From Obrimoposthia wandeli (Eukaryota), in assembly GCA_977020255.1 (NCBI GenBank), contig CDROCS010001822.1, positions 124,001 to 188,000 of the forward strand: DNA of 64,000 nt, written 5' to 3'. Each line of letters opens with the position of its first letter. Position 1 is the first letter of the stretch. The notes beneath the pieces are model-generated. The model was not told where the DNA came from, ran no database searches, and worked only from the letters and a program-made list of their open reading frames with translations. The translations under genes were made by a program, and so were the position numbers. Below are positions 14,666 through 45,328 of this stretch, in pieces.

Positions 14666-14840
14666 TGTTAGGTTTAAGAATTAAGAAATTAAAATAATTT
14701 AGTCGATTAAATACTAAAATAAAAATCCTTGAAAGCAAGGTTGAAAATTAAATTAAATATTAATTTTAGATTCAAAATTGAAATTAGTGGAAGTTAGGAT
14801 AAAAATTAGGAGGACCACGAAGGTCGTGTATAGTGTAGGA

Positions 14841-14848
14841 TATATAAG
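14841..14848 (+). promoter_or_regulatory. LTR TATA box
   Basis: TATATAAG; the homologous position in the solo LTR reads ATATATATAG (43261). Confidence 0.6.
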
Positions 14849-14939
14849 GTTAGATTAATTAACCCAAAAGTGCAACAAAAAGCACATAATTAAAGGAAAA
14901 GCAAAAGGGAACAATTGAGAAAATCGAACGTCAATCAAG

Positions 14940-14989
14940 GTAAGCACTTTTTCGTGCAGTTAAATTGGAGTAACTAAATTATTTTTCAG
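14940..14989 (+). other. Predicted 50-nt mini-intron in the LTR leader
   Basis: CAAG|GTAAGC...ATTTTTCAG|C; a 54-nt equivalent occurs in the solo LTR (43818-43871). Confidence 0.6.
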
Positions 14990-15146
14990 CTGCCGCCAAA
15001 ACTCCAGTTGAAACAGCTGTCGACATTGCTGATTGACAGCCAGGAGTTGCAGAAATCGACTATAAAAGTCGTCGACCAAAAAACAAATAGACACGAAAGA
15101 AAAAATCAATATCCCAAATCTACTGAAGGGAATCGACCACATATTG

Positions 15147-15152
15147 GTAAGT
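15147..15152 (+). promoter_or_regulatory. Major 5' splice donor of the LTR leader
   Basis: TATTG|GTAAGT, a perfect consensus; the equivalent in the solo LTR is TATTG|GTAAGA (44028). Confidence 0.7.
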
Positions 15153-15200
15153 GAGATTTGGTGAAATTTGGATTAACTTATTGTAGATCACAAGTCTATT

Positions 15201-15522
15201 GCCAATATCGTTTGAAAGAAATATCGTTAAATATTGCCAATATCGTTTGAAAGAAATATCGTTAAATTTTGCCAATATCGTTTGAAAGAAATATCGCTAA
15301 ATATTGCCAATATCGTTTGAAAGAAATATCGTTAAATATTGCCAATATCGTTTGAAAGAAATATCGTTAAATTTTGCCAATATCGTTTGAAAGAAATATC
15401 GTTAAATTTTGCCAATATCGTTTGAAAGAAATATCGTTAAATGATGCCAATATCGTTTGAAAGAAATATCGTTAAATTTTGCCAATATCGTTTGAAAGAA
15501 ATATCGCTAAATATTGCCAATA
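15201..15522 (+). repeat. 35-bp tandem repeat in 5' LTR, 9 full copies plus a partial
   Basis: Unit GCCAATATCGTTTGAAAGAAATATCGTTAAAT(A/T)TT starts at 15201, 15236 ... 15481. Confidence 0.97.
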
Positions 15523-15623
15523 CATTGTTAAAAGAAGCCGATCGTCGCAATATTCCCAAACTACCTACGGATCCTGTACCGGAATTTCAAGCAGCATATA
15601 GGTAAGAACACCGACTAAAGCAT

Positions 15624-16060
15624 TCATTGCCCCTAGTTGGCAATTAGGATACATTCATTGCCCCTTGTTGGTAATTCGAAATTGTAATATATTTTAACCA
15701 TATTCATTGTCCCTAGCTGACAATTAGGATTGCTGTCTCTTTAACCAAATCATTGTCCCTAGTTGACAATTAGGATTGTCCATTTTATTCATTGTCCCCA
15801 GTTGACAATTAGGAATTGTACGAGTTTTTTCCCGTAAGATTCATTGTCTCTAGCTGACAATTCGGTTCACTCATTGTCCCTAGTTGACAATTCGGAACAA
15901 ATACTCATTGTCCCTAGTTAACAATTCGGTCCACTCATTGTCCCTAGTTGACAATTCGGAACCAACACTCATTGTCCTAGTTGACAATTCGGAGTAAGTT
16001 TTCATTGTCATCGTTGACAATTAGGTTTTTAGGAGAATCATTGTCCACAGTGGACAATTC
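15624..16060 (+). repeat. Array of 12 short palindromic units TC-ATTGTC-n6/7-GACAAT
   Basis: Units at 15626, 15657, 15706, 15752, 15791, 15843, 15873, 15907, 15937, 15971, 16004 and 16040. Confidence 0.9.
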
Positions 16061-16329
16061 GTGGTTAAATACACAACAGATAGAGTTACGGATTCAAGAA
16101 ACTTTATCCACACATAAGAAGTTGAGTCGAAGAAATTTAAGAGGGTTGCGTTATAGATTAACCAACCTAGGAAGAAGAATAACCCTAAAATCTCGATCAC
16201 CCGAACGTAAAATCGATACGTGGTTCATCCCCACTTCTTGTAGAGACTTACAGAAGTCTTAGGAATTTTACCATACTTTTTAGAGATACGTACATAAACG
16301 TATTGTTGTGTTTAGTTACGTGAATTACC

Positions 16330-16335
16330 AATAAA
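16330..16335 (+). terminator. LTR polyadenylation signal (functional copy expected at 37787-37792)
   Basis: The only AATAAA I found downstream of the TATA box in this LTR; conserved in the solo LTR (~45729). Confidence 0.6.
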
Positions 16336-16548
16336 CAATTTCCTACATTAGAACAAGTTGTTTTTGCACCCTTCAGAATAAGAGACATCGAATCAAATAC
16401 CTTCAGATAGTACAAGAGATAGGCAACCATAACACTAAGTAGGCCACGACCAACTTTAAGACCTGCTTCTAATCGAACTCACGTTGGGGCCCTCCGCATT
16501 TCAGAGGATCTGTACCAAGTTTCGTATAGAAACCCCAACATATTAAAG

Positions 16549-16566
16549 TGGTGCCCCGAGTGAGGA
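16549..16566 (+). other. Primer-binding site complementary to the 3' end of elongator tRNA-Met
   Basis: TGGTGCCCCGAGTGAGGA vs the complement of vertebrate elongator tRNA-Met 3' end (recalled) TGGTGCCCCGTGTGAGGA: one mismatch. Separated from the LTR by TATTAAAG. Confidence 0.8.
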
Positions 16567-16605
16567 TAGCTCGTCGGACACAGCGAATTCACGTGGAATA
16601 AGTTC

Positions 16606-17455: not shown

Positions 17456-17991
17456 AGTAAATTTGATAAAGTGAGAATCGAGTGGATTGATACTCGAAGT
17501 AATTAATTGAATAGGTTAAGTCGGGAGACTCTGTCCTCGAACTAATTAAAGAGATAAAAAATCGTAAAATAAGAATTGTGAAATAAGATAAAAATAATAA
17601 GTAAATTGATATCGTAAACGAATACATAATTGATAAGACAACGGATAATAGAAAAGGACCCGCGTATAATACTAGAAGACAAAGTCAGATTCCCAAGGAA
17701 GAGATAAATAATAATAAAGTTAACCGAATTGAACAGGTTCCCCAAACAGATAACAAAGTAACAGAAAAGACTAGAGTCGAAGAAAACGTATCAGAAAGAG
17801 ACGTAAATCAATCAGCAGTTTCAACCGATAGTTTTGATCTGACTGAGTTATTTGGTGACATAAACCCAGAAGAAATTGATAATCTTGAAGTTCAAAACCC
17901 AGAAGAAATTGAAATTGCCAATCCAGTAGTGATTGAAGAAGTTCAAGTAAATAATATTGAAGGAATAGTTGAAGACGATATAGTTGAAGAT

Positions 17992-18687
17992 ATGGCTCAC
18001 CAAGGAGCTCCACCAGATATTAATGCAGGAAATAATGTAGGTGAAATGAATGCCGAGCAGTTGGCACAAGCTTTAAATGCGACGTTGAGACCCAATTTTT
18101 CAGGATCATTGCAGATTACAAAGTTTAAAGGAGATGAGGAAAGTATTTGTGACTTCCTCGCAGAATATTCGAGTTGTGCAGATGTTCAAGGATGGAACGA
18201 TAAAGAAAAATGTGTCAGAGTACAGGCACATTTAACCGGATTAGCACTTGAAGTGTATAAACATTTGACAGAAGCAGAACGCATAGATTGGCCAACGTTG
18301 GAAAATGCTTTTATTGGAAAATTGGTATTAGGAGACTTAGCCAAAGTAAATAAGCGACTCATGAGAGAACGGAAACAGAAACATGATGAAGGCGTGAACG
18401 AATACGCGTATGTTTTGAGAACCTTGGCCGCAAGAGCGTACCCAAGAAGAATAATGAGAAATCAGGACGGTAATCCTGTAGCTCCAGAAGCACAAGCAGC
18501 GGAAAATGACCGGAACCAAAATGAAATGGCAGAGGTTTTGTTAGATATATTTAGAGGAGGATTGAAAAAGGATATTAAAGTGTTATTAGCAGTATCGGAT
18601 ACAAACGATTTTGATAACGCCGTACGAAAGGCGAGAGAGATTGAGAAAAATATAAAAATAATGCAGCATTGGCAATTTACGCAATGA
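17992..18687 (+). CDS. gag: Gag capsid portion; the frame is open from 17605 without an ATG; probably continuous with the large ORF
   Basis: ITKFKGDEESICDFLAEY...GWND...LTGLALEVY...WPTLENAF...QKHDEGVNEYAYVLRTLAARAYP...IFRGGL is a typical Ty3/gypsy capsid. Confidence 0.88.
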   Translation: MAHQGAPPDINAGNNVGEMNAEQLAQALNATLRPNFSGSLQITKFKGDEESICDFLAEYSSCADVQGWNDKEKCVRVQAHLTGLALEVYKHLTEAERIDWPTLENAFIGKLVLGDLAKVNKRLMRERKQKHDEGVNEYAYVLRTLAARAYPRRIMRNQDGNPVAPEAQAAENDRNQNEMAEVLLDIFRGGLKKDIKVLLAVSDTNDFDNAVRKAREIEKNIKIMQHWQFTQ

Positions 18688-21600
18688 CTGCAGGTGACGA
18701 CGATAAAACAAAGGTATTTGTGAATAAAACAGAACCGAGTAATTTTCAGAATCGAAATTATGGACAAAATAAGTTCGAAAAAGTAGATGAATCCAGTAAC
18801 GGAAATAGAGATAATTTCCGAAGTAGGAATCGAGATGATTCGAGAGGTAGAAATAATAGTGAGTCTTGGAACAGGAATCGAGATGATTCAAGAGGTAGAA
18901 ATAATAATGATTCGTGGAATAGAAATAGAGATGATTCCAGGAATAGATTTAATAGAGATAATTCAGGAAATCGCCAACCTTGGAGAGGAGACGATAGGAA
19001 TTATAACGCCAACAGAGGAGAGCGAAGTGACTCTCGATTTGGAAATAATACAGGAAATAGCGACGGAAGATTCAATAATCGAGGAAGCGGTTTTGAATCG
19101 AATTTCCGAAGAAATTATTTTAGAGGGCGCTATGATAATAGACAGAATAGTCGTCGAGTACAGTTCGAAGATGAACAAAATAAGATAGATATTCGAGGGA
19201 GAATAATGTGTTACACGTGTAAGCAAATGGGTCACTATTCGAGAGATTGTACGAGAAGTAAAGAGTTCGGAACTAACAGATTTGGAAATAATAATTTCGG
19301 TAATAATAATTTTGGAAATAATTATAGAGGATATAATTCACCTCCGCCATGGAATAGAGGTGGTGGATATACTCCACAGCCATGGAGACCGAATAATCAG
19401 TATACAGATAGACAACAGTCACCAGGTAGATACAATAACTATGCAGACAGACAGCAAGGAGCTGAGAGATACAATAATTACGTAGGACAGCAAGGAGCTG
19501 AGAGATATAATAATTCTGGTAGATATAATAATAATAATGTCGACAAGACAAATAGTCGTGAGAGTTCGCCGAAACCGAAAGGAAATTTCAGTTATGTAAG
19601 CGATGACAGTGATAGGAATCGCGAGACCGAACTTCGACGCGAAATAGATTTTGAAGATAGTGATAGTAAATTTGAACGAATGTTGGGAATAATTAAAGAT
19701 TCACCACATACAAAGATGGCAAATTCATCTACGTTGTCGAAACAAGAAAAAAGTCTACACTCGAGAGAAGATATGAATGATTTAATGAATAAAATACTAG
19801 AAGCGTATGAGACACCAATAGAGAAAACGTGTAACGCACAACCGATGATTGAGCATGTAGAAGCAGCGAGAAATGCTACGAGTATGGAAAATGTAAAAAA
19901 GATAATTAGTGAAGCTAAGGAGACGTTAAATCAACCGTTAGATGAAACGAGTGAAGCTCCAGAAGTTTTGGCCAAATTACAAACAATTAAAGTGCACCGA
20001 TTGGAAGAAGTGCGTGCAGAATTGGTTAAACATAGTCATGATAACTTGGATTACAAAGAAGTACCACGAGGATTATTGAAAGGTTATGGTCGTTACGTAC
20101 AGAGATCAAACCAAAAAGGAACGATGAAAATTTCACTTCGATTAATTTCCGGACAGATAATACATGAAAAACTTAACGTGTATCAAACAATGAAAACGAT
20201 TCGGAAAAAGTTAGCCGAGAAACTTGAAATTGATGGAATGAATATGTTGTTCCATTATAAAGGGAGATCACTAGATGATGAGGACGTACCAGTCGAGTGT
20301 GGATATCCGATAGGAAATGAATTAGAGGAAAAAATTGATGTCATCACTGTAGGACGTCAAGAGTTAGTAGATAATGAAGGATTAACGGAGATATTGAATT
20401 CTGCGTTAGAAATGATAAAAACGCCTATAGAAATTTTAGACAGTTCAAGCGAAAGCGGAGATAATGATGTAGCTGAAGCTTGGAACAAGACATCCACACC
20501 AGAACCGTACGTAGCTGAATTACAAGATATGAATTTAGAAAATGAGTTGACAACTCCAGTGGTCGAGGTGCCACCAGAACCAGATATAATTCAAATCAGA
20601 CAAGATGAAGTCACGGATACAGCTAACCAAGTGCGACAAAACGAAACCGTAACCCAACTAGTAGGAGAAGACGAAGTCTCCGAGATTGTAGATTTGGATT
20701 CACCAATTTGGCATGCCGCATACAGAGATAGACAAGCAGAGCAAATGATGCGACAAAATGAAGAGATTGGCCATGAAGAAGGACCAAGTCACGAGATACA
20801 GTATAATGGTGAACCGTATGATCCAGGAGAGAATCAAACTGAGTATCAGTATTTTCGAAGAGGACCTGGAAGACCTAGAAAAGGCGAAAGTATATTACGA
20901 AATGTTCTAACTGCACCACAAACTGATGAAGAGAGACATCTAAGTATTGGACAGTTAGCAGCGTCATTAGAGCAGTATAGTGCAGAGAGGAATGAAGATA
21001 TCAGAGGTGATATGAATTCGGAAACTCCAAGTAGTAAAGATATACTTACGGGAATTCTCAGGCAAGTGAAGCCGAAGTTGTTTAAAATGTACAGAGATGA
21101 AACAACCGATATAACAGACAATTTGACTAAAGCAGTTAGATCACAAATGTCTGCAGTAAAGAGAATGACTGCGAATCATGTATACCATGCATCCATAGAT
21201 AGATTCTATGACGGTGAAGTTTTAGCGAGATTATGTGGAAACCAAACTACAAATAAAAAGTTAATTACAGCGATCACATATCTATGTTTCCAATTGACGG
21301 AACGAACGAGCCAACCTCACGAAGTCAAACAAGGAATAAATGAAGCGATGTATTTGATCGAGAATGTATTACAGAGACGAATTGACGAAAATGGAGGTTG
21401 GGCAAAATTAAGTGACTACGCTAAAACCATTTTGGAAATGAATGAAGACGATGACGAACAATGTCATGAGAATCGTCAAAAGGAAAATAAACAATACCGT
21501 CCGAAAGAGAGAAACAATCAACCAAATATGTCCACAACAATGATGATGATGATGTTAGTAATGTTTATGGGAATGCAACAGGCATCAGGATTGATAGCAT

Positions 21601-24600
21601 ATGACTGTAGCATACCAAAGATGGGACAAAAGTATTCACTGCTTGACAGCGAAGACTGTCCAGAGTCACAGCCGTCAAAATTAGAAGTTAAAGGTGTTGA
21701 AAACTACTTTGTGTATCAGGATGTTGATAAAGTACAAGTAGAAGTGAAAGAATGTTCAATCCATTCAAGTTATCACGAATTCTATTGTGGCCATAGAAGT
21801 TTTATGTCAGAAATTACACCTACCACACCGTACAAGGCACATAAGGTTTTGCCGAGAGATTGCGAAGACGCATTTCGAACGGGAACAATAGAGGTAGACA
21901 AGAATTACAAACCTGATGTAAAAATTGGAGTGAGACGATACGAAACAGTCACGAGAGTCGGACAACGATGGGCTGATGGATCTTGTAACGGAGGAACAAA
22001 AAACGTACGTGGAACCAAAGTAACTGCGTTAGTAATGGACGTAACTTACAAAATCGAATTAAAAACATGGACCGCCAATTTTGATAAAAAGACACAACTA
22101 ATGATGACGTATCCAGAATGTAAAATGACAGATACATCTTGTTTTACAGGCGAATCCACAATTGTGTATCAAGTGAATCCGAAGCAATGCTCTTTAGTAT
22201 TTTTGAAAGAGATTAGTTTTAATAAAATAAAAGGATTCCTGTATAATAGAGATGGAGAAGGATTCCTGTATAATAAAGTTGGAAAAGGATTGCTCAATGA
22301 AACAAGACCAATCCCAATGACAAAAACACCTACACTGTTAATGGCAACATCAATAGAAGAAGGATTGATATTTATTAAAAAGAGAAACAAGACGCGATGC
22401 GGAATGACTGTTAGTACTACAAACTATCCAGGAATAGTTTTGTCCAAAGAAGCAATAGCATTGGCAGAAACCAAGCTAAAACCAAAAAATATGCAGCTAC
22501 ACACGTATTTTAGTAATAAAATTGATTTCTATTATCATAAAGGATTGATGCAAATGGAACAGTTATATCGAATGATGATCGAAAGAGATTGCCAGCTAAA
22601 CAAAGAGATCGTAAGAACAAAGTTAGCATTAGCTATTACGAATCCAGACATGGTAGCACCATTATTACCCTTGGATGAAGGAGTATTTGCTAAAACCATG
22701 GGAGAAGTATTGTATACTTACAAGTGTAATAAAGTAGAAGTACAGTTGAGAACAACAAACCGATGTACGAGTGAATTGGCAGTAACGTATAATTTAAAAG
22801 ATCTTTTTGTTGAACCAATCACGAGAATGATACTTCCAAAAGACACTCCAACTAAAGAAATCAGCTGCTCTAATATAATGGCACCTGAATATCAGATGAC
22901 GAATGATTTATGGATAACGTTACCTGATCGAAAGCCAACGAAAACCCCAGCGATGATAAGAATGACGAATCTTAAAGGTAAAATGAAATTCCAAGCGGTG
23001 GAAAATATGGAGAACGCAGGATTGTACAATGAAAAAGATTTAAAAGCGGCGTGGAACGAAATAATGTTTCCAGTAAAAAGAGCCAGAGTACTTACGGAGA
23101 TGGTACATCGAGCATTACCGCCAGGAGCGAGATATGCGAATTTCGATATGTTATTATCGCCAAGTCATTTCAAGGAAGCAGCACATCAGACACTTAGAAA
23201 GATGTGGGGGAAATTCCTTGTTTTAGGACAATTATTTTCGGGTATCATAGGTATTTATGTTATAATTAAATTTGTGCAGGTAATTATAGCCCAGGTGTTG
23301 TCTACGTATAGTTTATACAGGATAACCGGAATCACCTGGCAACTTATAATTGGATGTTTTCCATTTTTAGCAAAATATCTAATGCACCATCATCACGAGA
23401 ACGAGTTGCGAGCCCTCAAGAAGGAACAACACCAAACGAGAACCATGATGCGAGAACCAAGAAACTATCGAGACGACAACGACGACGATAATGATAGTCC
23501 AGGAGTATATGCAAAGATACCCGGAAAACCAAAGATTCCGTTACCAGACAAGGAAGAAGTGGCGTTAAACCTATATCCAATGAAGGAACTAAAGGAGGAG
23601 AAGGAAAAGTTCAAGAGAGGCATCTTAATGATAAGATGGCCTAAAGTGAGCTACAGTGAGATTCCACAAGCAGAGGAAAAAGACAAAAAAGATAATTCCA
23701 GAAGAATTCTGAAGTCTAGGATATCAAATGAGAATCCAAATGCTCCACCACAAGTAGCAGTAACATTAAACGGAAGAGAATATCTTGCCGAAGTTGATAC
23801 CGGATCTGCAGTATCAGTACTGAGTAAAGAAATCTTGTCATCAAAAGAATTAAGAGAAGTATGTCCTAGAAAACAGACATTTGTTAACGTGAATGGTACA
23901 GATGTAGTGTCGGAAGGAACACTGAAATGTTCGTTGAATATCGATGGAAGAGCATTGCAGTTAAATGCTAGAATATTCACAGATTGCGGTAGTCCAGTCA
24001 TGATTTGGATGGACGTAATACGAATGTTTGAAGGAATAATTATACTACCAAACAACAAGAGTTATAAGAATGACAGTTCAGTGAGAGAGATAAAAATGTT
24101 GAGAGGACCTATAGTCGAAAAGGAAAAATACACTACGTTCCGTATGGGAAATTCGTACCAAGACAAAAAACAGGAAGCGCTAGTAAAGTCGATACTTCAC
24201 TACAAAAACGTAAACCTCGGACCACAAGAGATGACGAGGAGAAAAATAACATATGTGAATCTGTCAGAAAGGGATCCCATGAGATTCGAGAGAAAGAGAC
24301 GAAATATATTAGAACTGTACTATTCAAAAGAAATGGCACGTAAAATGGCAAGATCAGGTTTAGAAATGTTAAATGCGACAAGCAGTTATGGTCATGAGAT
24401 AGTAGTACGATGCGTATGGTGTAGAGTAAAGTTTAGAGAGTGGGAAAAGAATGAAAACCCAATGAGACGTCATAAAAGAGATGCACCAAATTGTCCATTT
24501 CTTTTAAAACTGAAAACTTCAAACGTACCAGAAATCCAAACGGGAAAAGTACCCGATTTCGATTACAGTGACGGGATTCCAAAAGGAGAATCAGCTCTAA

Positions 24601-27600
24601 TAACAGGTAGAGTAATAACAAATAGCCGAATTGAAGATATATTCGAAGTTATGCGAGAAGTGAACGAATGTGACGAACAGTATCGAGAAGTAACTTTCGA
24701 AGACCCAAGACTTAAAAAATTGGCAAAAAAGGGACTTTTTGCTATAAAAAAGGATGGTAAAGACGTAATTAAATGCCACAAGTGTAAAAAAGAACGAATT
24801 ATCGACAGATATACTCTTGAGCTACCTAATAAAATTTTACATCATGAATTTTGCGAGTTTGGTATGTTAAAAAACAAAATAAAGCAAAAAGAACAGAAAA
24901 CCGAATGTATAATCGAATACCAAATCACACGAAAAGAGATTTTGGCTCAACAAGACACACCAGTAGTGTCATTCGTGAGAAGGTTATATCCAAAAGAAGC
25001 AGAAAGAATCAGAGAATTGGTAGAATTAAAAATAAAAACTACGCGAAACGGATACGGATCGATTTTTGAATTACTGCGAGATAAAGATGACAGTACAATT
25101 GAAACAAAAGAGAAAGAGTACATAAATGAACTAGAATACGTACTAGAAGATCCGGAATGCGCAGTTTGCATGGTCAACAAAATAGAAGTTGCCTTTCTAC
25201 CATGCGGACATGTAAGAACATGTCGGAGATGTGCGAATGAAATGGTATCATGTCCGATTTGTCGAAGAATAATAGATCGACAAGTGAGAAACATTAGATT
25301 TCACTATCCAAACATAGGAAGTGGACTGACAGAGTGTAATAATTCGATAAATACAATATACCATATGGGAAACATAAATGGAGCACAGCGACCAGCAGCT
25401 ATCATTAGAGTAAATAATTTAAGAGTAAAAGCCTTAATTGATACAGGTGCTGTAGCTTCGATAGTAAGTGAAGACTGTTTGACAGAGGAACAGAAACGAA
25501 CAATGGCAGAACCAGATGAATTCTTGGTATCGGTCAATGGAGACCCTGTAAAAGTGACGGGAATATTACCATGTACATTTATAATTGGACGTAATACGAT
25601 CACTATACCAGTTAGAATCATGAAAGAATGTCCTGAACCTACAATTTTAGGAATGGATGTACTATCACAACTTAAAGGGATAAGTATTGATTTACAAGAT
25701 CCAAGATTGAAGGATAGCACATCAAACAGACAAATAAACCAAATTGATGTAATTATAGAGAATCCTATAAAAATCGGTAAAAGATCACAATTTCTCATTC
25801 AAGGTCACACATTATCAGAAGATAAAGGACCAGTTGTGTTCGAACCATCACGAGATTTCATAGAGAAATACGAATTACCAGTTGTGAGTACAGTATGCCT
25901 GATCGAAAACCACAAAATACCAGTTAGACTGATGAATACAACCAACAATGACATTCTATTATACAGAGGAATGAGGTTGGGAAAGATAGCACAGATGGAG
26001 AATCCCACCGTGTGTGCTACGAAACTCGATAAAGATACGAATGATTACGAAGAAATAGTAATCCAATCAGAAAGACTGACAACTAGAGAAAAGAAACAAT
26101 TACTTGATCTAATACATAAATTTCCGAAAGTAATTGCAAAAAATCCATATGACATAGGAGAAACACCTGTCATAAAACATACAATACCACTGACAGAAGA
26201 CAAAGTAGTCAGAAGAAGACCATATCGAGTACCATTACAATTACAAGATGAAGTAAAAAGTCAGATTGAAGATATGTCTAAAACAGGAGTAATTAGACCG
26301 AGTTTTTCGCCATTCTCAGCACCTGTGGTGTTGGTAAAAAAGAAGGATGGGAAAATGAGATTCTGTATAGATTTCAGAGAACTGAACAAGATCACAAGAA
26401 AAGATGTGTATCCATTACCTAGAATCGAAGAGATGCTCGATAAATTGGGTAATTCAGATTATTTTACGACATTAGATTTGCAGAGTGGATACTGGCAAAT
26501 CGAGATAGAGGAAGAGGACAAACACAAAACAGCCTTTTCCTGCGGAGATGGACTGTACGAATGCGAAAAGATGCCATTCGGACTGACAGGAGCTCCAGCA
26601 ACATTTCAGCGTTGCATGAATTTTGTACTCGCATCGTGTGCAAACACGATGGTTTATATTGATGACATAATAATATTTTCGAAAACGTTCGAAGAACATT
26701 TAAAAAATCTTGAAGTTGTATTTAAAAGACTGGAAAACGCTAAATTAAAAGTTAAACCTACAAAATGCGAATGGGCTAAAGAGCGAGTAACATTTTTAGG
26801 ACATATAGTATCGAAAGAAGGCATTCGTCCTGATCCGGCAAAGATCGAGAAAGTAAAAGCGCATTTAGCGCCAAAGACTGTTAAGGAGATACAGAGTTTT
26901 TTAGGTCTTGCGAATTATTACAGACGATTTGTTGAACATTTTTCAGATATAGCAACACCATTGAGAAAGTTGACGAGGAAAGATGAGAAGTTCATATGGG
27001 GAGAAGAAGCCCAACAAGCATTCGAGCATTTAAAAGAAAGACTGATAAAAGAACCAATATTAGCGTTTCCAGATATAAACCGACAATTCATACTCATGAC
27101 AGATGCAAGTAACTATGCTGTAGGAGCAGTATTGGGACAAGAGGATGACGAAGGAAGAGAACACGTCATCGCGTATGCGAGTAGAGGATTAAACAGAGCC
27201 GAAAGAGGATACTCTGTTATCGAAAAGGAATGTCTAGCCATAGTGTATTCATGTAGACAGTACAGACACTACTTGCTAGGACAAAAAGTATTCCTGTATA
27301 CAGATCACAAACCACTACAGTTCTTATATAAACATAGAGATGAGATGAGTAGATTAAACAGATGGTTTCTAAAATTGGCCGAATTCGATCTAGAAATCCG
27401 TTATAGAACCGGAAAGTCGAATGGCAACGCAGATTGTTTATCGAGATTGACAAATGTAGATGAAAAAGGAAACATAATTCCAGAGGAAAAACAAGATGAA
27501 ACCAATGACCAAAAAGGAGAAGCAAATCTACTGACGATTTTGCTAAAGACGGTTAAAATAGACAAAGAGATCATCAAAGAACAGAAAGAAGATGAAGAAC

Positions 27601-30600
27601 TGAGTCTAATCAAAGAATTGTTGGTGAAAGGAGATCTAAACGATGAAATGACGAAAAAATACTCGATAAAAGAAGGAATCTTGTATATTGTCAATAATGT
27701 CGGAAAGATAGTAGTAGTAATTCCGAAGTCATTGAAAACAGCAGTGATGATCCAGTATCACGACGGAACACTAGGAGGACATCTGTCAGGGCGAAAGACA
27801 ATAGCCAGAATCAAAGAGAAGTACCATTGGGATGGTATGGAAGACGACATAAAACAATGGTGTAAACAATGTAAAGTATGTTTAACCAGAAAAGACACTG
27901 GAACTCGTACTAAAGTTCCACTGAAACCAATGCCAGTTCCCTTGGCACCAATGGAATTCATAGCGATGGATATATTGGGACCATTGAGAGAATCAAGTAA
28001 AGGAAACAAGTACGTCATAGTATTTACGGATTACATGACGAGATGGGTAGAAGCATATCCCATGCAAAACCAGAAGGCTGAAACAATAGCACAAATCTTA
28101 GTGGAAGAGATAATATTTCGATACGGAGTGCCTAGAAAGTTGTTAACGGATCAAGGTAAGAACTTCACTGGAGAAGTCATAAAAGCAGTATCGAAGATAT
28201 TCGGAATCATGAAGTTACAAACTTCACCATATCACCCACAGACAGATGGTCTGGTAGAAAGGTTTAATAAAACTTTATGTATGATGGTACAATCCTATTG
28301 CTCCGACAAGCAAGAGGATTGGGATAAATATTTACCTTCATGTTTATATGCTTACAGGAATTCAGTTCGAGAGGCGACGGGTCACACACCATTCTATCTG
28401 ATGTATCTCAGACAGAACAATATGCCGATGGATCTGGAGTGGACCGAGCCAACATCTCAGTATCTAGAAACTGAACAATACATTGTCGTCATGAAGGAAA
28501 GATTACAAGATGCTTGGACCAAAGCCGGATTGAAGTTGAAATTCAATCAAGAAGGTTACAAGGAACAATACGACAAAAAAGCAAAACCACATGAATTTAG
28601 AGTCGGAGATCAAGTGATGATATTTTATCCAGTCATCGAACCAGGTCTATTGTTTAAACTTCATAGACCATACAAAGGACCATACAAGGTGATCCAGACA
28701 ACCTCAACAAATTTGAAAGTAATCAACGAAGAGAATCGGAACAAGGAACCGATGATTGTACATGCAAATCGATGCAAATTAGTACCAAATAAAGATAATG
28801 CGTCACGATATGAGTTAAGATCACAGAAATCGAAATCGAATACCAATACCATTAAACTTACACGAATGGTAAGTGATCGGAACTACATAAACATGATGAC
28901 GAGTGGTAGCGAGAAAAAACCAGCGAGAATTGGTATGCTCAGAATGAAGTACCAAGAGGAAAAGGAAGTAATCCGACACATCGCACCACAAGAGATATTA
29001 GAAGAAGACGAAGAGATAATAGTCGTTTTCGAAAAAACACAACCCACAGATGTGGCTAAAGAAGTCATTGTGAAAGATGCACTGACAAACGAATTTCTGT
29101 GCGAACTTAGAGTGTCATACTACGACGGAAATACATTAGTCGCAGCACTATATCAAAACTCCAATGTGTTTACGACTGAGAAAGTGCTAATCGAAATCAC
29201 ATTGACACCAAACATAGTTGCATGGCAGAACTATGACAGTACTGAAGCAGGACTAGCCAGTCAGGAAGAGAAGGAACCGGCCGGTGGTCACATACTGCAT
29301 GGTACACCAAAAAGACTTAAACAAGAATACCCCGATGTAATAATGGTATTACGTAATTCACATGGGAAAAGAGATATCATGAGAGTCCATTTAATCGACG
29401 CTGATACTGAAAAGATAATTTGTCAGATGGATACTAAATACTTTGATGGAAAGACAATTGTATGTTGTATACCAGAATCTCACCGGTTAGACACAGATCA
29501 AACGGAAGTATCTGTAAGGTTGAGCGTAATAGAAGGATTCCATTCGCCAACCCATCCGGAAGTGACTAACAATAAAATCATCAAAGCAACGGCAGAGTTA
29601 CGCATTGACAGCGGATACCGGAAGTGGGAAGCTAAAAATAAAAAACCACAAAGAATCAATATGATCCGAGAACAAGTGACCAACTCAATCCAGCCAAAAT
29701 ATCATGCTGAAATAGTATCATCCGCGCCAAGTGTGATCACATCGATAAACGACGAAATTATAATTTTACTAAAAAATCGATGGCCGTCATCAACTGAGAT
29801 ACGAGTAAACTTAATTAATTATGCGAAGACACCGATATCTAAGCTGAATGTTACCTATTTCGATGGATTGTCCATCATGGGTAAATTAGAAACAATTGTC
29901 ATGTGCTATGGAGCACAGTTCCAAGTTGAGATACTTAAAGATAGTGTAATACCGTATCCGATTCACAAATACGAAGGGAAAATCAATCCAATTATTCTAA
30001 CCCCTTCATTAATTTCAGTTCAGACAGACATACCAGAATACCCTTCGAGCGAGTCTAGTGAAGACAGCGAACCAGAAAGTAACGATACAGAATCAACAGA
30101 ATCCGAAGATAACATAATAGAGCGATTCGGAAGAACCATGGAGGTTGAATTCGCTAAAGAGAGCAGAAAAAGACAAAACATAGAATTCGTGAAACAGAAT
30201 ATACAAGAAAGACGAATTAAATCTGCAGAAGAGACCGAGTCGGAAGAAGACTCAACAAAGGAACAGACATCAGAGACAAAGATGAATATCTCTCCAGCAA
30301 TACGAATGCTGAGAGGAAAGAAACTGGCGAAACTATCCAACATCGACGAACAAATAGAGAAGAGATTAGAAAGACTAAAACTTGAAGAGTCAGAATTAAT
30401 GCCACCAATGAGTGAGATCATAACAGGTAAGTTATACCTCGGAAATGTGGAGGATGCAACAGATGAAAAGAAACTGTTGGAACAAGGGATAACATACGTG
30501 ATCAACGTTACAATGAATCACAAATCGCAATATCAGACGATCAGAGCTATGACATTAAGAGTAAAAGACTCAATGGACGCTAATCTTCTCGAATGGTTTG

Positions 30601-33600
30601 TAGAAACAAACGAAATACTTCACAGAGAACTCCGGAACCAAGGAAAAGTGTTGGTACATTGTCAGAAAGGAATTTCTCGATCAGCAACTCTAGTATTAGC
30701 ATACCTAATAAAGACTAGACGAATGCAGGTACTAGAAGCGCTAAAATACCTACAGGAGAGAAGAAGTATTGCAAACCCAAATCTTAATTTTTTGGGACAG
30801 TTGGCAAATTACCAACTTCTGTTGCAAGAACAAAGACGGATGGACAACATTCCTGAGGATCCAAAGGAAAAGAATTTCCTCCAAGCATTATCATTGACCG
30901 GGTTATTCTTAGCCGGAGTCGACAAAATTACACAGATAATGCCAAAAGTATTTTTATGTCATCCAGGAGATATAGATACTGCTGGATTAAAGTTCCACAG
31001 TATCAACCGAGTAATCAACATTGTTGAAGTAGGAAACGAGATAATTAGTCTGTGTCAAAATACTGAAGATGACACCACTCGATACATACATGCTTCCAAT
31101 CGAGAAATAAACGATGCACAACAACATCTGACGAAATTGACTCAAACCATCCAAGCTGAAGTCACAGAAGGAAACGGCGTTCTGATATATCAGAAAAAAG
31201 GTACAATGTTAGCGCCTACCATAGGTGTATCCTTGTTGGTAGAGTACCATGGTCACACGCCAGAAGAAGCGATGGTCTACATCAAACAGAATAGACCAAA
31301 TACGGAATTCAAACCGTTACTCGTTCGAGAAATAGAGAAATACACCGAAAAGAGGAAGCAACAACGAGAAACAAATGAAGCTACAACAACAGTGCCCAGC
31401 TTTCAATACCAAAGATTGTTAGCAATAGGCTTGTTAAGTTGTCTAATGCCGATAACGGGAGCACAAGAAATAGGCTCCAACCACGGAAATAGTTCCTGGT
31501 TCAACGAAATCCACAACTACACCATACAGTACCATACGCCGGCACTGATGATGCTATTAGTGTTGTTAGGACTAATTGATGTGTGGATCATCCGAAAATG
31601 TCTTCGATCCATGAGAACCGACAGTAAAAGATTTCAGTTTGTAAAGATGAAAAGACCAAATGGACCAACGAACAAAGTGCTTGTGTATCTAGACGAAAGG
31701 ATCGAGGACAACATAGTAAATGAAGCGATATTTTACCCACAAAACAGAATACTGAATCAATTCCGAATAGATTACGAAGCTGACCGACAGCGCACACTTG
31801 ACCGAATATCAACAACATTCGCCGGATGCAAGCGAAGAAAACGAGTTGTAAAGGAAATACAAAAAGATGCTGATACAAAAGGACCAACGTATATATTCGA
31901 CGGCGATGTCATCAAAACACGTGAGTATGGAAGTAAGAGAGTGATAATTGAAACGATGGAAGGACATAAAACATGCTTCGGAAAGTTGACGATACAAGGT
32001 AACCCGGTACAGTTAATTATCGGAAAAAATGGAATCGAGGAGATGTCAAAACAACGACAGATAACAAAACGATCTAATCAGAAACAGATATCTCTCAAAC
32101 GATTGATAATTAAAACCCTTTGCAAAAGGTCAGTCAAGGCCCTGTGCACCGTTGCACAAGGATTGATTTATGGAGTAGTAATTGGATTGGTACTGCAAGC
32201 CATGCCAACCAGTAAAGCCGAATTGATGACACTATCCGAATATAATTTACATTTGAGAAATCTAGACAACACCCTAGAAATAATCAAGACATCCCACAGT
32301 AAAGCCGTGATGATCATGTGTGTAAAAGGATGTCCAGGACGAATGTGTATAGTCCCAGCGACCGAAATGATAACACTTAATGGACATTATGGAATTAGTG
32401 TTGTCACATGTGAAGACTACATATTTGGACAAACTAAAATAGTACTTCTCAGTGACATGTCCAACCAAAGTGCACACAAATTTAAAATATTAACCATCAA
32501 GAGTAAAGGAATACCAGCAGTACGTTACGGTATTCTAGAATTGGTTAATCCAATACTTGCACTGATCATTGGACTCATAATATTAATATTACTCATCTTG
32601 TTTTGTTGTACAAAGATAGAGTTGAGATCAAAAAAGAAGCGTCATGATCTCGCAAGACGAACAGGTCAAATGAACTTACAAAAATTCAACACAATTATAC
32701 CAAGACCACCATTTCTAGATGAACCAGCACCGGAGTACCAGCCAACGATATATGAACATATCGAGGAAAGACCGTACTATATGAGTAATTTGACTTGTTT
32801 CATTGAAGTTCCTGAGTTTAGGAATCGAACGATCATAGGAATCATGCTGATCATACAAATCACCACTACCAAGGCTAGTTATGAGATCATGATCAGTAAA
32901 TGGAGACAAGACGTAATACGGGCAGTATACATAGAAATCGCCCTTCTAAAAACAAATCACGTAGTAGACATTCATCTACAGACGTCAGCAACTGACAATA
33001 TCGATCAGAAATTGTATGTCATCCGACAGGTCAGAATAAAAATCGACCAAAGTACACCCGATTACAATTTAATATTATTATATCATGAAAGAGTGTTATA
33101 CCTACGGATAACAATATCAAAGAGGAAGCGGATTATCCAAAGTATCCGAACAAAGTCATTAATATTGCCTAGAGATGAGCGCATCTGGAAAATTGTCGAC
33201 AGGATTATGATCACAGGTAGACGACGTAAAGCCGTATGGAATTCCGTTAGGATATTTTTCAGATTGCTAGAAACCGACAGAGTAACAGTAATGTGTCCCA
33301 ACTCAGATGGCGGAATCAGATTCGAAATCCAAAGCCAAATGTTAGTACCACATTTTAACACAGAATGTCTGTGTAATCGAATTTCCAGTAATACTACAGA
33401 GACCTCGACCATAATCATGATAATAACAGGTGAAATATTCTACATAACTCTAAGATACCAGAACCGTCGATTTCGTAGATCCGGTATAAGTATCAAACCC
33501 AGGAAAATCATTCCCAAAAGACCAATCCTAGTCAAAAAGAAGGCAAAGGTAATCGAAAGTAAACGCCATTCCAAAAAACCGACAGTGATCAGAACAAAGA

Positions 33601-34153: not shown

Positions 34154-34453
34154 ATGTCCGAAGAATGCCCAATATGTTTGGAAGATCTAACCGAACGAAG
34201 AACAAGACCCGAAACCTGCAACCATTTACACCACGAGGAATGTTTATCGACATAGATCAGAACTTATGGACAGTTCGGACATCCAACATACCCTTGTTGC
34301 CCTGTATGCAGAAGACAATTCGCAAGATTCATCATGTTAGAACCCAACCAAGAGGATGTATATGTACAGGTGGTATTCTGTTGGAAGAATTTCGGAGAGT
34401 GTTGGTGTTATTACTGTTTGTCAGAACGACAAAATCCGACCACTTTTGTGTAA
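34154..34453 (+). pseudogene. RING-H2 accessory gene 1 with an in-frame TAG at 34253 (W codon in paralog)
   Basis: MSEECPICLEDL...TCNHLHHEECLST*IRTY...CPVCRRQF...FCWKNFGECWCYYC is colinear with gene 2. Confidence 0.85.
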
Positions 34454-34513
34454 ACATCACACAACCACCAGTCCTCAATCGAGCCCAAATTCAACATCAA
34501 CCCTCTCACAGTA

Positions 34514-34819
34514 ATGTCTGGAGAATGTTCCATCTGCTACGAGAGCATCATGGACTTCTACACCAAGCCCAACAACTGCGACCACCTCTTCCACGTCGAA
34601 TGCCTCGAGACGTGGATCCCCATCGCCAACAGCAACAATCCCCTCGACTTCCCAACCTGCCCGATGTGTAGAGCGACCTTCTCAGTACACTACGTGTACA
34701 ACCAGGACAGCCTCCAAGCAGTGGTACCCATAGTACACTGCTGGAAAACCATCTGCGATTGCTGGTGCTCGTTCTGCGTGGAGGAGCGAAGCACAGGCCA
34801 GCCCAATTCCCAACAATAA
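34514..34819 (+). CDS. RING-H2 accessory gene 2 (101 aa, putative E3 ligase)
   Basis: CSIC...CDHLFHVECLETW...CPMC, followed by the extra Cys cluster HCWKTICDCWCSFC. Confidence 0.88.
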   Translation: MSGECSICYESIMDFYTKPNNCDHLFHVECLETWIPIANSNNPLDFPTCPMCRATFSVHYVYNQDSLQAVVPIVHCWKTICDCWCSFCVEERSTGQPNSQQ

Positions 34820-35158
34820 TCGAAGGTAACTTTCTGACTTGAACGTGACATCATGAACTACCCTGTGTATCGCATACCGCGATAAATTAGCTACCATAAT
34901 TGTAATCATAATTATATAATCTTGTGAACTGTAAATTGACCATTACCATTTTTATGTATGATGTTTAACTGAAATTGTAATTATTATACTGAAATTCTAA
35001 AAAGACAATTTTTATGCTTAGTGTGAATGTGTAAACATGCCTAAAATCGGAACAAAACTCGGTAGGATTAAATAACTAAGGATTCGTTTTGAAATAAAAT
35101 TTAAATTAACGATGAGAACGGTGAACCCCAAATTGAAAGGAGTTATTTTCTTGTGCAG

Positions 35159-35656
35159 ATGAAGTGTACCGTCTGCCTCGAGAAAATTTGGACGGCATCG
35201 GCATCCCCTGTCGGCTGCCGTCACAAATTCCACGAATCATGCCTATATACTTGGGCCCGACTTCGACCCGAAGGACACGTAAATTGTCCATTGTGCCGTA
35301 CTCCCTTCGCGGAATGGACACTGCAGTGTCGAGGGCGCCACAAGGGCACCCATTCGCTCACCAGCTGTATTGGTGGCGAGCACTGCCATTGCCCCAATTG
35401 TATCGCGCGCCGTCGCGATGCAAAACTCGCTCTCCGCGAGAAATATCGGTCAACTCGCGACCCCCGCTCATGGCAGCGTGGCCGTCAAATATGGCTCGAG
35501 AATCGCGGAGTACACGGGCGGTACACGACCATTTTTCACCCGAGCCAACATCTCACCATGCGCCAGCAGATGATACTGTACAATGGCGGCCCACCATCGT
35601 ATCCAGAACTACCACTGGAGCAGGTCTTGCTGTTCCTGAAGGACAGGAACGGTTGA
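35159..35656 (+). CDS. RING-H2 accessory gene 3 (165 aa, putative E3 ligase)
   Basis: CTVC...CRHKFHESCLYTW...CPLC, plus HCHCPNC; ATG directly follows TTTTCTTGTGCAG. Confidence 0.88.
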   Translation: MKCTVCLEKIWTASASPVGCRHKFHESCLYTWARLRPEGHVNCPLCRTPFAEWTLQCRGRHKGTHSLTSCIGGEHCHCPNCIARRRDAKLALREKYRSTRDPRSWQRGRQIWLENRGVHGRYTTIFHPSQHLTMRQQMILYNGGPPSYPELPLEQVLLFLKDRNG

Positions 35657-36478
35657 CATATCCCTGACAATCTTGTTGACAGATCCCTGACAATCACCCT
35701 TAATCTTTTCTTGTGTGTAAATTTTTAGTTGTGATAAGTAATAATGTATGGTTTGAGACTTGCTCCAAATTATACATTATGATTCCCACTAAAAACCGGG
35801 GTTTTGAAAAATTTTGTTTTGGGCATGTTTGATGAGTTGAATGATTGATTTTGTAGGGATGAACCTAAAATCAACAGCCAGAGGCTTGTATAAGTAAAAT
35901 CGATACGTTCCGGGGACGTAACTTTTTTGGAACCCCCGAGGTATGTTAGGTTTAAGAATTAAGAAATTAAAATAATTTAGTCGATTAAATACTAAAATAA
36001 AAATCCTTGAAAGCAAGGTTGAAAATTAAATTAAATATTAATTTTAGATTCAAAATTGAAATTAGTGGAAGTTAGGATAAAAATTAGGAGGACCACGAAG
36101 GTCGTGTATAGTGTAGGATATATAAGGTTAGATTAATTAACCCAAAAGTGCAACAAAAAGCACATAATTAAAGGAAAAGCAAAAGGAAACAATTGAGAAA
36201 ATCGAACGTCAATCAAGGTAAGCACTTTTTCGTGCAGTTAAATTGGAGTAACTAAATTATTTTTCAGCTGCCGCCAAAACTCCAGTTGAAACAGCTGTCG
36301 ACATTGCTGATTGACAGCCAGGAGTTGCAGAAATCGACTATAAAAGTCGTCGACCAAAAAACAAATAGACACGAAAGAAAAAATCAATATCCCAAATCTA
36401 CTGAAGGGAATCGACCACATATTGGTAAGTGAGATTTGGTGAAATTTGGATTAACTTATTGTAGATCACAAGTCTATT

Positions 36479-36975
36479 GCCAATATCGTTTGAAAGAAAT
36501 ATCGTTAAATATTGCCAATATCGTTTGAAAGAAATATCGTTAAATATTGCCAATATCGTTTGAAAGAAATATCGTTAAATATTGCCAATATCGTTTGAAA
36601 GAAATATCGTTAAATTTTGCCAATATCGTTTGAAAGAAATATCGCTAAATATTGCCAATATCGTTTGAAAGAAATATCGTTAAATTTTGCCAATATCGTT
36701 TGAAAGAAATATCGTTAAATATTGCCAATATCGTTTGAAAGAAATATCGTTAAATATTGCCAATATCGTTTGAAAGAAATATCGTTAAATTTTGCCAATA
36801 TCGTTTGAAAGAAATATCGCTAAATATTGCCAATATCGTTTGAAAGAAATATCGTTAAATTTTGCCAATATCGTTTGAAAGAAATATCGTTAAATATTGC
36901 CAATATCGTTTGAAAGAAATATCGTTAAATTTTGCCAATATCGTTTGAAAGAAATATCGCTAAATATTGCCAATA
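36479..36975 (+). repeat. 35-bp tandem repeat in 3' LTR, 14 full copies plus a partial
   Basis: Unit starts at 36479, 36514 ... 36934; partial at 36969. Confidence 0.97.
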
Positions 36976-37076
36976 CATTGTTAAAAGAAGCCGATCGTCG
37001 CAATATTCCCAAACTACCTACGGATCCTGTACCGGAATTTCAAGCAGCATATAGGTAAGAACACCGACTAAAGCAT

Positions 37077-37517
37077 TCATTGCCCCTAGTTGGCAATTAG
37101 GATACATTCATTGCCCCTTGTTGGTAATTCGAAATTGTAATATATTTTAACCATATTCATTGTCCCTAGCTGACAATTAGGATTGCTGTCTCTTTAACCA
37201 AATCATTGTCCCTAGTTGACAATTAGGATTGTCCATTTTATTCATTGTCCCCAGTTGACAATTAGGAATTGTACGAGTTTTTTCCCGTAAGATTCATTGT
37301 CCCTAGCTGACAATTCGGTTCACTCATTGTCCCTAGTTGACAATTCGGAACAAATACTCATTGTCCCTAGTTGACAATTCGGAACAAATACTCATTGTCC
37401 CTAGTTGACAATTCGGAACCAACACTCATTGTCCTAGTTGACAATTCGGAGTAAGTTTTCATTGTCATCGTTGACAATTAGGTTTTTAGGAGAATCATTG
37501 TCCACAGTGGACAATTC
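37077..37517 (+). repeat. Palindromic-unit array in 3' LTR
   Basis: Copy of 15624-16060. Confidence 0.9.
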
Positions 37518-38029
37518 GTGGTTAAATACACAACAGATAGAGTTACGGATTCAAGAAACTTTATCCACACATAAGAAGTTGAGTCGAAGAAATTTAAGAG
37601 GGTTGCGTTATAGATTAACCAACCTAGGAAGAAGAATAACCCTAAAATCTCGATCACCCGAACGTAAAATCGATACGTGGTTCATCCCCACTTCTTGTAG
37701 AGACTTACAGAAGTCTTAGGAATTTTACCATACTTTTTAGAGATACGTACATAAACGTATTGTTGTGTTTAGTTACGTGAATTACCAATAAACAATTTCC
37801 TACATTAGAACAAGTTGTTTTTGCACCCTTCAGAATAAGAGACATCGAATCAAATACCTTCAGATAGTACAAGAGATAGGCAACCATAACACTAAGTAGG
37901 CCACGACCAACTTTAAGACCTGCTTCTAATCGAACTCACGTTGGGGCCCTCCGCATTTCAGAGGATCTGTACCAAGTTTCGTATAGAAACCCCAACAATC
38001 TTATCTTCATCATAATTCAGCAACTAATC

Positions 38030-44040: not shown

Positions 44041-45117
44041 AAATTGGTAATTTAAATTGAAAGAAAACATAATTGTCCCTCTGAATTTATTGAATTGATA
44101 ATTTAAATTGGTAATTTAAATTGAAAGAAAACATAATTGTCCCTCTGAATTTATTGAATAGATAATTTAAATTGGTGATTTGAATTGAAAGAAAACATAT
44201 TGTCCCTCTGAATTTATTGAATTGATAATTTAAATTGGTAATTTAAATTGAAAGAAAACATAATTGTCCCTCTGAATTTATTGAATTGATAATTTAAATT
44301 GGTAATTTAAATTGAAAGAAAACATAATTGTCCCTCTGAATTTATTGAATAGATAATTTAAATTGGTAATTTAAATTGAAAGAAAACATAATTGTCCCTC
44401 TGAATTTATTGAATAGATAATTTAAATTGGTGATTTGAATTGAAAGAAAACATATTGTCCCTCTGAATTTATTGAATTGATAATTTAAATTGGTAATTTA
44501 AATTGAAAGAAAACATATTGTCCCTCTGAATTTATTGAATTGATAATTTAAATTGGTAATTTAAATTGAAAGAAAACATAATTGTCCCTCTGAATTTATT
44601 GAATTGATAATTTAAATTGGTAATTTAAATTGAAAGAAAACATAATTGTCCCTCTGAATTTATTGAATTGATAATTTAAATTGGTAATTTAAATTGAAAG
44701 AAAACATAATTGTCCCTCTGAATTTATTGAATAGATAATTTAAATTGGTAATTTAAATTGAAAGAAAACATAATTGTCCCTCTGAATTTATTGAATAGAT
44801 AATTTAAATTGGTGATTTGAATTGAAAGAAAACATATTGTCCCTCTGAATTTATTGAATTGATAATTTAAATTGGTAATTTAAATTGAAAGAAAACATAT
44901 TGTCCCTCTGAATTTATTGAATTGATAATTTAAATTGGTAATTTAAATTGAAAGAAAACATAATTGTCCCTCTGAATTTATTGAATTGATAATTTAAATT
45001 GGTAATTTAAATTGAAAGAAAACATAATTGTCCCTCTGAATTTATTGAATAGATAATTTAAATTGGTGATTTGAATTGAAAGAAAACATATTGTCCCTCT
45101 GAATTTATTGAATTGAA
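44041..45117 (+). repeat. 63/64-bp tandem repeat, about 17 copies, inside the solo LTR
   Basis: Unit AAATTGGTAATTTAAATTGAAAGAAAACATAATTGTCCCTCTGAATTTATTGAATTGATAATTT, with a recurring variant (GTGA...TTGAA...CATATT). Confidence 0.95.
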
Positions 45118-45328
45118 AAATCTAAATAATTTGTGTATTAACATCAAGTTTTTGTATTGATTTGAAGAATCTAAATAATTTGCGTATTGTTATCAAGTTT
45201 TTGGATTGAATTGAAAAGTCTAAATAATTTGCGTATTGATATCAAGTTTTTGTATTGAATTGAAAAGTCTAAATAATTTGCGTATTGATATTAAAGTTTT
45301 TGTATTGAATTGAAAAGTCTAAATAAAG
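45118..45328 (+). repeat. ~49-bp tandem repeat, 4 copies, inside the solo LTR
   Basis: Unit AAGTCTAAATAATTTGCGTATTGATATCAAGTTTTTGTATTGAATTGAA. Confidence 0.9.

Follow-up and report, generated by a model that had tools for sequence, protein, structure and literature searches.

A candidate gB-like envelope gene in frame between gag and pol in a Burro-like giant Ty3/gypsy element of Obrimoposthia wandeli

Background

Giant retrotransposons in which an envelope gene (env) lies in frame between gag and pol were described from planarians as Burro elements (2019, PMC6431247), and the element analysed here resembles them closely. It was found in a stretch of 64,000 nucleotides of Obrimoposthia wandeli DNA (GenBank assembly GCA_977020255.1, contig CDROCS010001822.1, positions 124,001 to 188,000, forward strand), which we call the window. 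Chary and Hayashi (eLife 2026, PMC13524379) reported GAG-ENV-POL elements with a gB-type env, supported by AlphaFold trimers, in Nematoda, Bryozoa and Platyhelminthes; six of them, Smed_errantivirus_1-6, come from Schmidtea. A glycoprotein of the same family is carried by the mosquito long terminal repeat (LTR) element Anakin (Dezordi 2020, PMC7642597), whose backbone is BEL/Pao, whereas our element has Ty3/gypsy-type RNase H and integrase with a GPY motif and the window gives no match to DUF5641. In Atlas virus of hookworm (PMC9094657), Env also resides inside the single polyprotein of an LTR element and was studied as recombinant protein. Unlike our element, however, Atlas virus is a Belpaovirus of Gag-Pol-Env order with a C-terminal, class II phlebovirus-like fusogen. 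The accessible literature on such elements contains no test of Env topology, processing or infectivity.

With Burro and GYPSM1 of dugesiid planarians (PMC6431247) the element shares a single open reading frame (ORF) of about 5,000 amino acids (aa) that includes env at the level of the family, Gag, ubiquitin-like and BCL2-like domains before env, env in frame before the protease, a BIR domain, accessory ORFs and very high copy number. Burro env matches fusion proteins of arthropod and fish mononegaviruses, and so does the env described here. The two differ in several respects. Burro exceeds 30 kb and has two or three CCHC knuckles, whereas our element measures 23.3 kb with both LTRs and has one. 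Pfam finds no MATH/TRAF or ankyrin domain in the window; the main ORF of the Burro-like element of D. tigrina also lacks MATH (PMC6431247), and ankyrin was found in one relative (P0153). Two proteases, dual-specificity phosphatases (DSP) and three downstream RING ORFs are present here and absent from the Burro description, in which env was likened to the gypsy/F type by HHpred, whereas the predicted model of our Env is class III and gB-like. On length and knuckle count, compared by description, we file the element as Burro-like and not as one of Burro-1 to -4.

The GAG-ENV-POL errantiviruses (PMC13524379) share with it Ty3/gypsy pol, gag, the gene order, a gB-like Env related to chuvirus G with its ectodomain between signal peptide and transmembrane (TM) segment, and multicopy occurrence. 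In the Schmidtea domain I-II sequences, eight cysteines and the motifs TGES and TNY-G align by eye with our Env. None of six diagnostic motifs of Smed_errantivirus_1-6 is found here, and the element is not identical to any of them. A first, sequence-only reading of this DNA had taken the position of env, inside the polyprotein and upstream of pol, for a departure from known elements. This novelty does not stand, because the same layout had been published for Burro and for the GAG-ENV-POL elements (PMC6431247, PMC13524379). The element adds a Burro-like member to the GAG-ENV-POL, gB-type class.

Results

The Env interval (21528-23384) extends from Met949 through residue 1567 of the main ORF (Table 1). 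The features from which a chuvirus-type glycoprotein had originally been recognised are all present: LIAYDC stands at aa 970 (nt 21591) right after a hydrophobic stretch ending in ASG, the ectodomain contains 14 cysteines (aa 975-1395) and two N-glycosylation sequons, at Asn1205 and Asn1235, and a single segment of the Env region (aa 1509-1544) exceeds the 19-residue hydropathy cut-off. No furin-type site was found in the ectodomain by pattern search. Against Pfam, Env scores 321 bits (E 1e-95; cut-off 27) with PF24664, Monjiviricetes_fusion. A search of the PDB with the single sequence gave nothing meaningful (best E 0.15), and a profile built from 115 homologues retrieved herpesvirus gB in 31 of 32 rows, each of them weak (best E 0.02). 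The AlphaFold model (pLDDT 90.8, pTM 0.69) possesses the long central helix of gB type (48 residues, model 303-350). In Foldseek searches gB occupied 39 of the 39 PDB rows shown (best E 1e-12, TM-score about 0.4), and the top rows in BFVD were glycoproteins of chu-like viruses (best E 4e-42, TM-score up to 0.69). Kinship with gB is thus reached only by family profile and fold search, and both lead to the class III fusogens with which the sequence-only reading had proposed a comparison. Profile and predicted fold together show Env as a class III, gB-like fusogen of chuvirus type.

The main ORF encodes, in this order, nucleocapsid, ubiquitin-like domain, Bcl-2-like domain, Env, protease 1 (PR1), BIR/BIR/RING, protease 2 (PR2), reverse transcriptase (RT), RNase H and integrase, then two DSP-type domains and a membrane-rich C-terminus. 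The capsid ORF of the window copy (17605-18687) is read in a different frame from this one, the break lying near 18,650. A frame-changing indel at this break separates all 20 other copies compared from the window copy, and 17 of these 20 join capsid and nucleocapsid in a single ORF. The earlier claim that Env sits between Gag and protease in one frame is consequently right for the family and wrong for the capsid of this particular copy, which is encoded separately. A programmed capsid/nucleocapsid frameshift was ruled out, the break being private to the window copy.

Copies of the family fall into two Env types, A (the type of the window) and B, described below. When aa 600-2000 was divided into 20-residue bins, none contained a break common to three or more of 32 type-A copies, and the stretch from Bcl-2 through Env to PR1 was free of stops in 24 of these copies. 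A programmed stop or frameshift around Env was rejected, since none is common to these copies. The same stretch was stop-free in 4 of 23 type-B copies, whose breaks lie at scattered positions, most often (6 copies) in the bin near aa 1020. Separate searches supplied the two sets, and the first 20 of type A are the best matches to the window Env, which favours intact ones. Five of the 23 type-B copies carry a stop at the same codon near polyprotein aa 1020, which could reflect shared descent through trans-mobilisation or a mutation hotspot.

Across the family, one frame evidently runs from capsid through Env to Pol, with no programmed frameshift or read-through around Env. Gag, Env and Pol are encoded 1:1:1 at the DNA level only; the lack of a shared break would mean equimolar synthesis only if splicing and selective degradation are absent. 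Contigs from four runs of one sample of unspecified kind cover all 30 bins, differences being under-counted in them, so that they speak neither for nor against splicing or frame changes. GT-AG ends occur at none of the 15 joints shown out of 373, and the capsid/nucleocapsid junction is not among the tabulated indels. A term search of the main text of PMC13524379 found no "polyprotein", "frameshift" or "splicing".

Stand-alone homologues begin with a signal peptide, and that of Env falls at the corresponding place. Of 12 embedded relatives, 8 lack a Met in the interval 16-35 residues ahead of the cut site, so that in these the peptide would act internally, as had been proposed for the window; cleavage is predicted from the same placement. 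Hydrophobic segments were scored by a simple window method on hydrophobicity scales. Where both segments were scored, in 24 proteins, the second came out weaker than the first in 23. It contains a conserved Cys-x-Pro, followed by a basic stretch and then by a Tyr motif of cytosol type. Tails with a YPx(1-3)[LI] motif number 8 among 17 embedded proteins and 54 among 114 stand-alone ones, where shuffled sequences lead one to expect 1.4 and 6.9 (about 6- to 8-fold enrichment). We take the LYPxxxL of the window copy to be an ALIX-type late domain or a YxxPhi sorting signal, both of which act in the cytosol. Env thus appears to be single-pass, a topology which the conserved YPxL-type tail motif supports and which would leave the Pol enzymes in the cytosol; lumenal protease, RT and integrase, which would have been awkward for the sequence-only reading, are not predicted.

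Searching 1.84 billion representatives gave 1,267 matches, the best 150 of which were considered. The closest relatives among the matches listed are long chains with 30-43% identity. Env is followed by protease in one chain in 10 of 16 relatives scanned, 5 of these 10 also having RT; 6 of the 16 contain two or more (two to six) protease stretches, and five have Gag upstream. A quick tree (no bootstrap, midpoint root) was built from 45 of the 116 near-full-length rows; in it, the window Env and 14 relatives form a clade (SH-aLRT 99) set apart from 30 stand-alone homologues. Thirteen of the 14 are long chains, and the remaining one, a shorter fragment, has Bcl-2 upstream. The clade excludes the stand-alone or Anakin-like homologues, whose identity is 21-28%. 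A recent capture from a chuvirus was rejected, because the polyprotein-embedded relatives make a clade of their own, which suggests that embedded Env is an old lineage. One relative, a Gag-less Env-PR-RT-IN chain (P0008), is deposited as a hypothetical protein in a metagenome bin assigned to Flavobacteriaceae and is probably mis-binned animal DNA.

In the 1.35-Gb genome, all 40 scored matches to the Env query were at least 98% identical, with 4,438 first-look candidates that are not to be read as copy numbers; the family is high-copy and young. Variants of Env shared among the first 20 copies comprise 19 non-synonymous and 37 synonymous changes (dN/dS, omega, 0.17; p 9e-11), and singleton variants give omega 0.29. 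RT is under tighter constraint than Env, its shared-variant omega being 0. Env is under purifying selection at the amino-acid level.

At three loci Env was just 76-79% identical to that of the window, while the adjoining domains were mostly above 90%. These represent a second Env type, B, and each type has at least 40 copies (40 of 40 scored genomic matches at 98% or more in both cases). Between 33 type-A and 23 type-B sequences, the mean distance is 26.6% in 21700-22500, 10.3% in 22600-23150, 5.3% from TM to PR1 and 3.9% from PR2 to RT, compared with 2-4.6% within types. Divergence is centred on aa 1000-1290, where dS is about 1.0 and omega 0.21; in the flanking non-Env parts dS is 0.10-0.23. 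Between types, omega is about 0.21 in the N-terminal half of Env and 0.11-0.13 in the C-terminal half, and all 14 cysteines are kept in the three type-B copies checked. By analogy with the gB-type Env already published, the variable part (about 21700-22500) would be the N-terminal half of the ectodomain, domains I-II.

Two Env types thus occur on one shared, nearly identical backbone. Positive selection as their origin was rejected, because dS climbs together with dN. The region-specific rise of dS instead indicates probable recombination with an older sister lineage. Env recombination is infrequent and ancient in PMC13524379, whereas here two ectodomain types share one young backbone. Open-access literature on Burro env and on late domains in chuvirus-type glycoproteins yielded nothing on topology, tail motif or env types, and our open-access searches found no prior report of two Env types, of a late-domain-like tail motif or of a signal peptide serving as Bcl-2 anchor.

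Structure and surroundings of the element

Table 1. Features of the element in window coordinates (position 1 is the first letter of the window)
Feature	Position	Strand	Details
5' LTR	14666..16540	+	1,875 bp; TG...CA ends; 35-nt tandem array inside
Primer-binding-site-like stretch	16549..16567	+	begins TGG; 8-nt spacer from 5' LTR
Gag N-terminus and capsid	17605..18687	+	separate overlapping ORF in this copy; Retrotrans_gag E 0.002, under Pfam cut-off
Main ORF	18684..33899	+	5,071 aa, stop-free frame
CCHC zinc knuckle (nucleocapsid)	19209..19253	+	aa 176; PF00098 E 9e-6
Ubiquitin-like domain	20136..20303	+	PF00240 E 9e-4, under curated cut-off
Bcl-2-like domain	21030..21470	+	immediately 5' of Env signal peptide
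Env signal peptide, internal	21528..21590	+	aa 949-969; predicted signal-peptidase cut after ASG
Predicted class III (gB-like, chuvirus-type) fusogen ectodomain	21591..23207	+	aa 970-1508
Membrane-proximal region, one TM helix, short weaker second hydrophobic segment	23208..23384	+	conserved Cys-x-Pro in second segment
LYPxxxL motif in Env tail	23571..23591	+
Aspartic protease 1	23751..24053	+	DTGS, aa 1705
IAP-like module	24327..25280	+	BIR, weak second BIR (E 0.018), RING
Protease 2, RT, RNase H, integrase	25404..28700	+	DTGA; YIDD; HHCC, DDE, GPY; Ty3/gypsy order
Dual-specificity phosphatase, then DSP-like domain	30432..31301	+	HCxxxxxR intact in first, missing from second
Three short RING-finger accessory ORFs	34154..35656	+	first has a stop in this copy
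3' LTR	35944..37997	+	2,054 bp

Domain order, profiles and LTRs identify the element as a Ty3/gypsy (Metaviridae) LTR retrotransposon. Its direct repeats with TG...CA ends differ by 12 mismatches and 3 gap events over 1,874 aligned bases and are flanked at both element ends by a 4-bp target-site duplication, ATCT (4-6 bp expected for the class). PR-RT-RNase H-IN order, YxDD, HHCC, DDE and GPY/F are those of Ty3/gypsy, and the RT region is 49-60% identical to that of relatives. The primer-site-like stretch, presumably matching the 3' end of tRNA-Met, is identical or nearly so in 40 of 40 scored genomic matches; no tRNA gene was found in the window when it was searched with the primer site in mind. 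No classical polypurine tract is seen just 5' of the 3' LTR (35915-35943).

Assignment of the Bcl-2-like domain rests on three moderate lines. PF00452 is matched by all four aligned homologues (best E 3e-5), the window copy itself reaching E 0.047, under the Pfam cut-off; the domain profile matches Bcl-xL (E 8e-4); and the nine top VIA-align rows for the predicted model (pLDDT 68) are all Bcl-2-family folds, the best (Z 7.1, rmsd 3.9, 117 aligned) being middling for a helical bundle. A fungal DUF6532 identity suggested by ESM Atlas was discarded for low recognition.

The element is dense in what looks like host-manipulation cargo: a DSP with its degenerate copy, Bcl-2, IAP and three RING ORFs, of which the second and third have Pfam RING matches and the first was called by eye. 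Two intact aspartic proteases (23751-24053 and 25404-25670) stand on either side of the IAP module. The segment before and in the first BIR (24100-24400) is the most variable part outside Env, and omega is 0.3-0.5 for aa 1791-2230. The PR-RT interval at aa 2345-2455, the place of dUTPase in Burro, has no Pfam match and is conserved in five relatives. Downstream of the phosphatases, 31390-32890 (aa 4236-4735) contains three more signal-peptide-like stretches and two TM segments. After the second of these TM segments come CC and a basic run, where the reovirus FAST protein p10 is matched weakly (E 0.07). This membrane-rich C-terminus suggests small accessory membrane proteins, and with these additional segments the polyprotein probably threads the endoplasmic reticulum (ER) several times.

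The genome also harbours a compact second family of Gag-Env-PR-RT type, to which five of 20 loci (L025-L028, L032) belong. Its Env is about 42% identical, it has a single protease, and none of the markers for Bcl-2, the ubiquitin-like domain and BIR matched it. Outside the element, a 340-bp fragment of the LTR 3' end, 94% identical, lies at 45603-45943 and adjoins a 64-nt tandem array (44041-45276). A host ORF (47460-48959) encodes an ANF-receptor ligand-binding domain (Pfam, E 7e-37); its sole database match is a class C GPCR-like protein with 24% identity.

Discussion

We propose that this envelope gene belongs to a Burro-like giant Ty3/gypsy element and that Env is made within one Gag-Env-Pol polyprotein, and put the probability of this at about 0.8. 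The ribosome would make Gag and the ubiquitin-like and Bcl-2-like domains in the cytosol, until the internal signal peptide directs the chain to the ER, where signal peptidase would cut before LIAYDC and so release the N-terminus of Env. Folding of the ectodomain would take place in the lumen, and the single helix would stop transfer. The tail, both proteases, IAP module, RT, RNase H, integrase and phosphatases would thus stay cytosolic and be separated by the element's own proteases. After cleavage, the signal peptide may possibly be left on the Bcl-2-like product as a C-terminal tail anchor in the membrane. Env would trimerise, the YPxL-type tail motif would aid trafficking or budding, and the outcome would be enveloped particles fusing with other host cells.

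Several observations weigh against parts of this proposal. With its capsid out of frame, the window copy is unable to produce the complete chain. Most type-B copies are interrupted between Bcl-2 and PR1, and only 9 of 23 have no break in Env, which speaks against a continuing role of this type. The second hydrophobic segment (aa 1546-1567, mean hydropathy 1.24) is moderately hydrophobic and conserved, and the AlphaFold models were made without a membrane. Finally, the Bcl-2 domain is missing from several relatives, so that anchoring by the signal peptide cannot be general.

The same protein and topology might serve an element that forms no cell-free infectious particle, with Env confined to the cell (envelopment at ER or endosome), engaged in cell-cell fusion, or used in contact transfer from somatic to stem or germ cells. 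Budding retroviruses make Gag in excess, and equimolar Gag:Env:Pol would be far from that; moreover, PSAP, PTAP and PPxY were searched for in the main ORF and none was found. Transmission by env outside Drosophila is left unresolved by Chary and Hayashi (PMC13524379), and activation of BURRO1 in differentiated tissue upon PIWI loss (PMC8532177) fits transfer from soma to stem cells by any route. The conserved YPxL-type motif and the two ectodomain types would, however, be easier to understand with an exposed, receptor-facing phase, although this argument is indirect. We regard a life without free particles as a serious possibility on the unlikely side.

Less plausibly, the main source of Env could be a spliced or subgenomic mRNA that begins in the Met run (aa 949-957); the in-frame fusion would then be secondary and the proportions not 1:1:1. 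A run of Met codons indeed opens the signal peptide in this family, GT-AG-like sites can be seen by eye in the LTR, and the env of Drosophila gypsy is expressed from a spliced mRNA. On the other hand, most embedded relatives lack a Met at the required distance from the cut, and with no stop between Env and Pol such a message would still yield an Env-Pol product. Ten in-frame slippery heptamers lie in aa 1-2300, but the 60 nt 3' of them fold at only -1 to -10 kcal/mol, values obtained with no control. We consider this origin of Env improbable.

That the membrane region crosses twice, leaving PR, RT and IN lumenal and the fused form non-functional, is very improbable. The conserved second segment and its hydropathy could be read in this way. 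Yet this segment is nearly always the weaker one, downstream of its Cys-x-Pro come a basic stretch and a Tyr motif of cytosol type, and the family, uninterrupted from Env into Pol, has reached high copy number, which requires cytosolic RT and integrase. The idea that Env is an inert passenger, retained because in a single ORF any stop or frameshift in Env also removes Pol, is logically sound but largely refuted and scarcely credible, since amino-acid changes would then go unconstrained, contrary to the omega values among copies and between types and to the cysteines kept in type B.

Returning to the polyprotein-borne envelope, a bolder extension may be entertained tentatively, and we would sooner doubt than assert it. 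The family could be an endogenous enveloped virus that recently passed from cell to cell, with a flavivirus-like membrane polyprotein, budding by a late domain in the Env tail, a signal-peptide-anchored Bcl-2 that spares the producer cells, and two Env subgroups that arose when one backbone exchanged the N-terminal half of its ectodomain, akin to the receptor-interference groups of retroviruses.

The layout, being published, would not surprise a specialist; the remaining question is how these elements use Env. The conserved tail motif and the signal-peptide boundary yield precise predictions on this point, and the two Env types on a near-identical backbone provide a natural control, marking where the protein is under pressure to change. 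If the enveloped-virus extension with its swapped subgroups is true, they would give the first indication that receptors or defences drive envelope turnover in a retroelement of gB type. If particles do pass between cells, Burro-like elements would be not transposons but animal viruses equipped with a class III fusogen.

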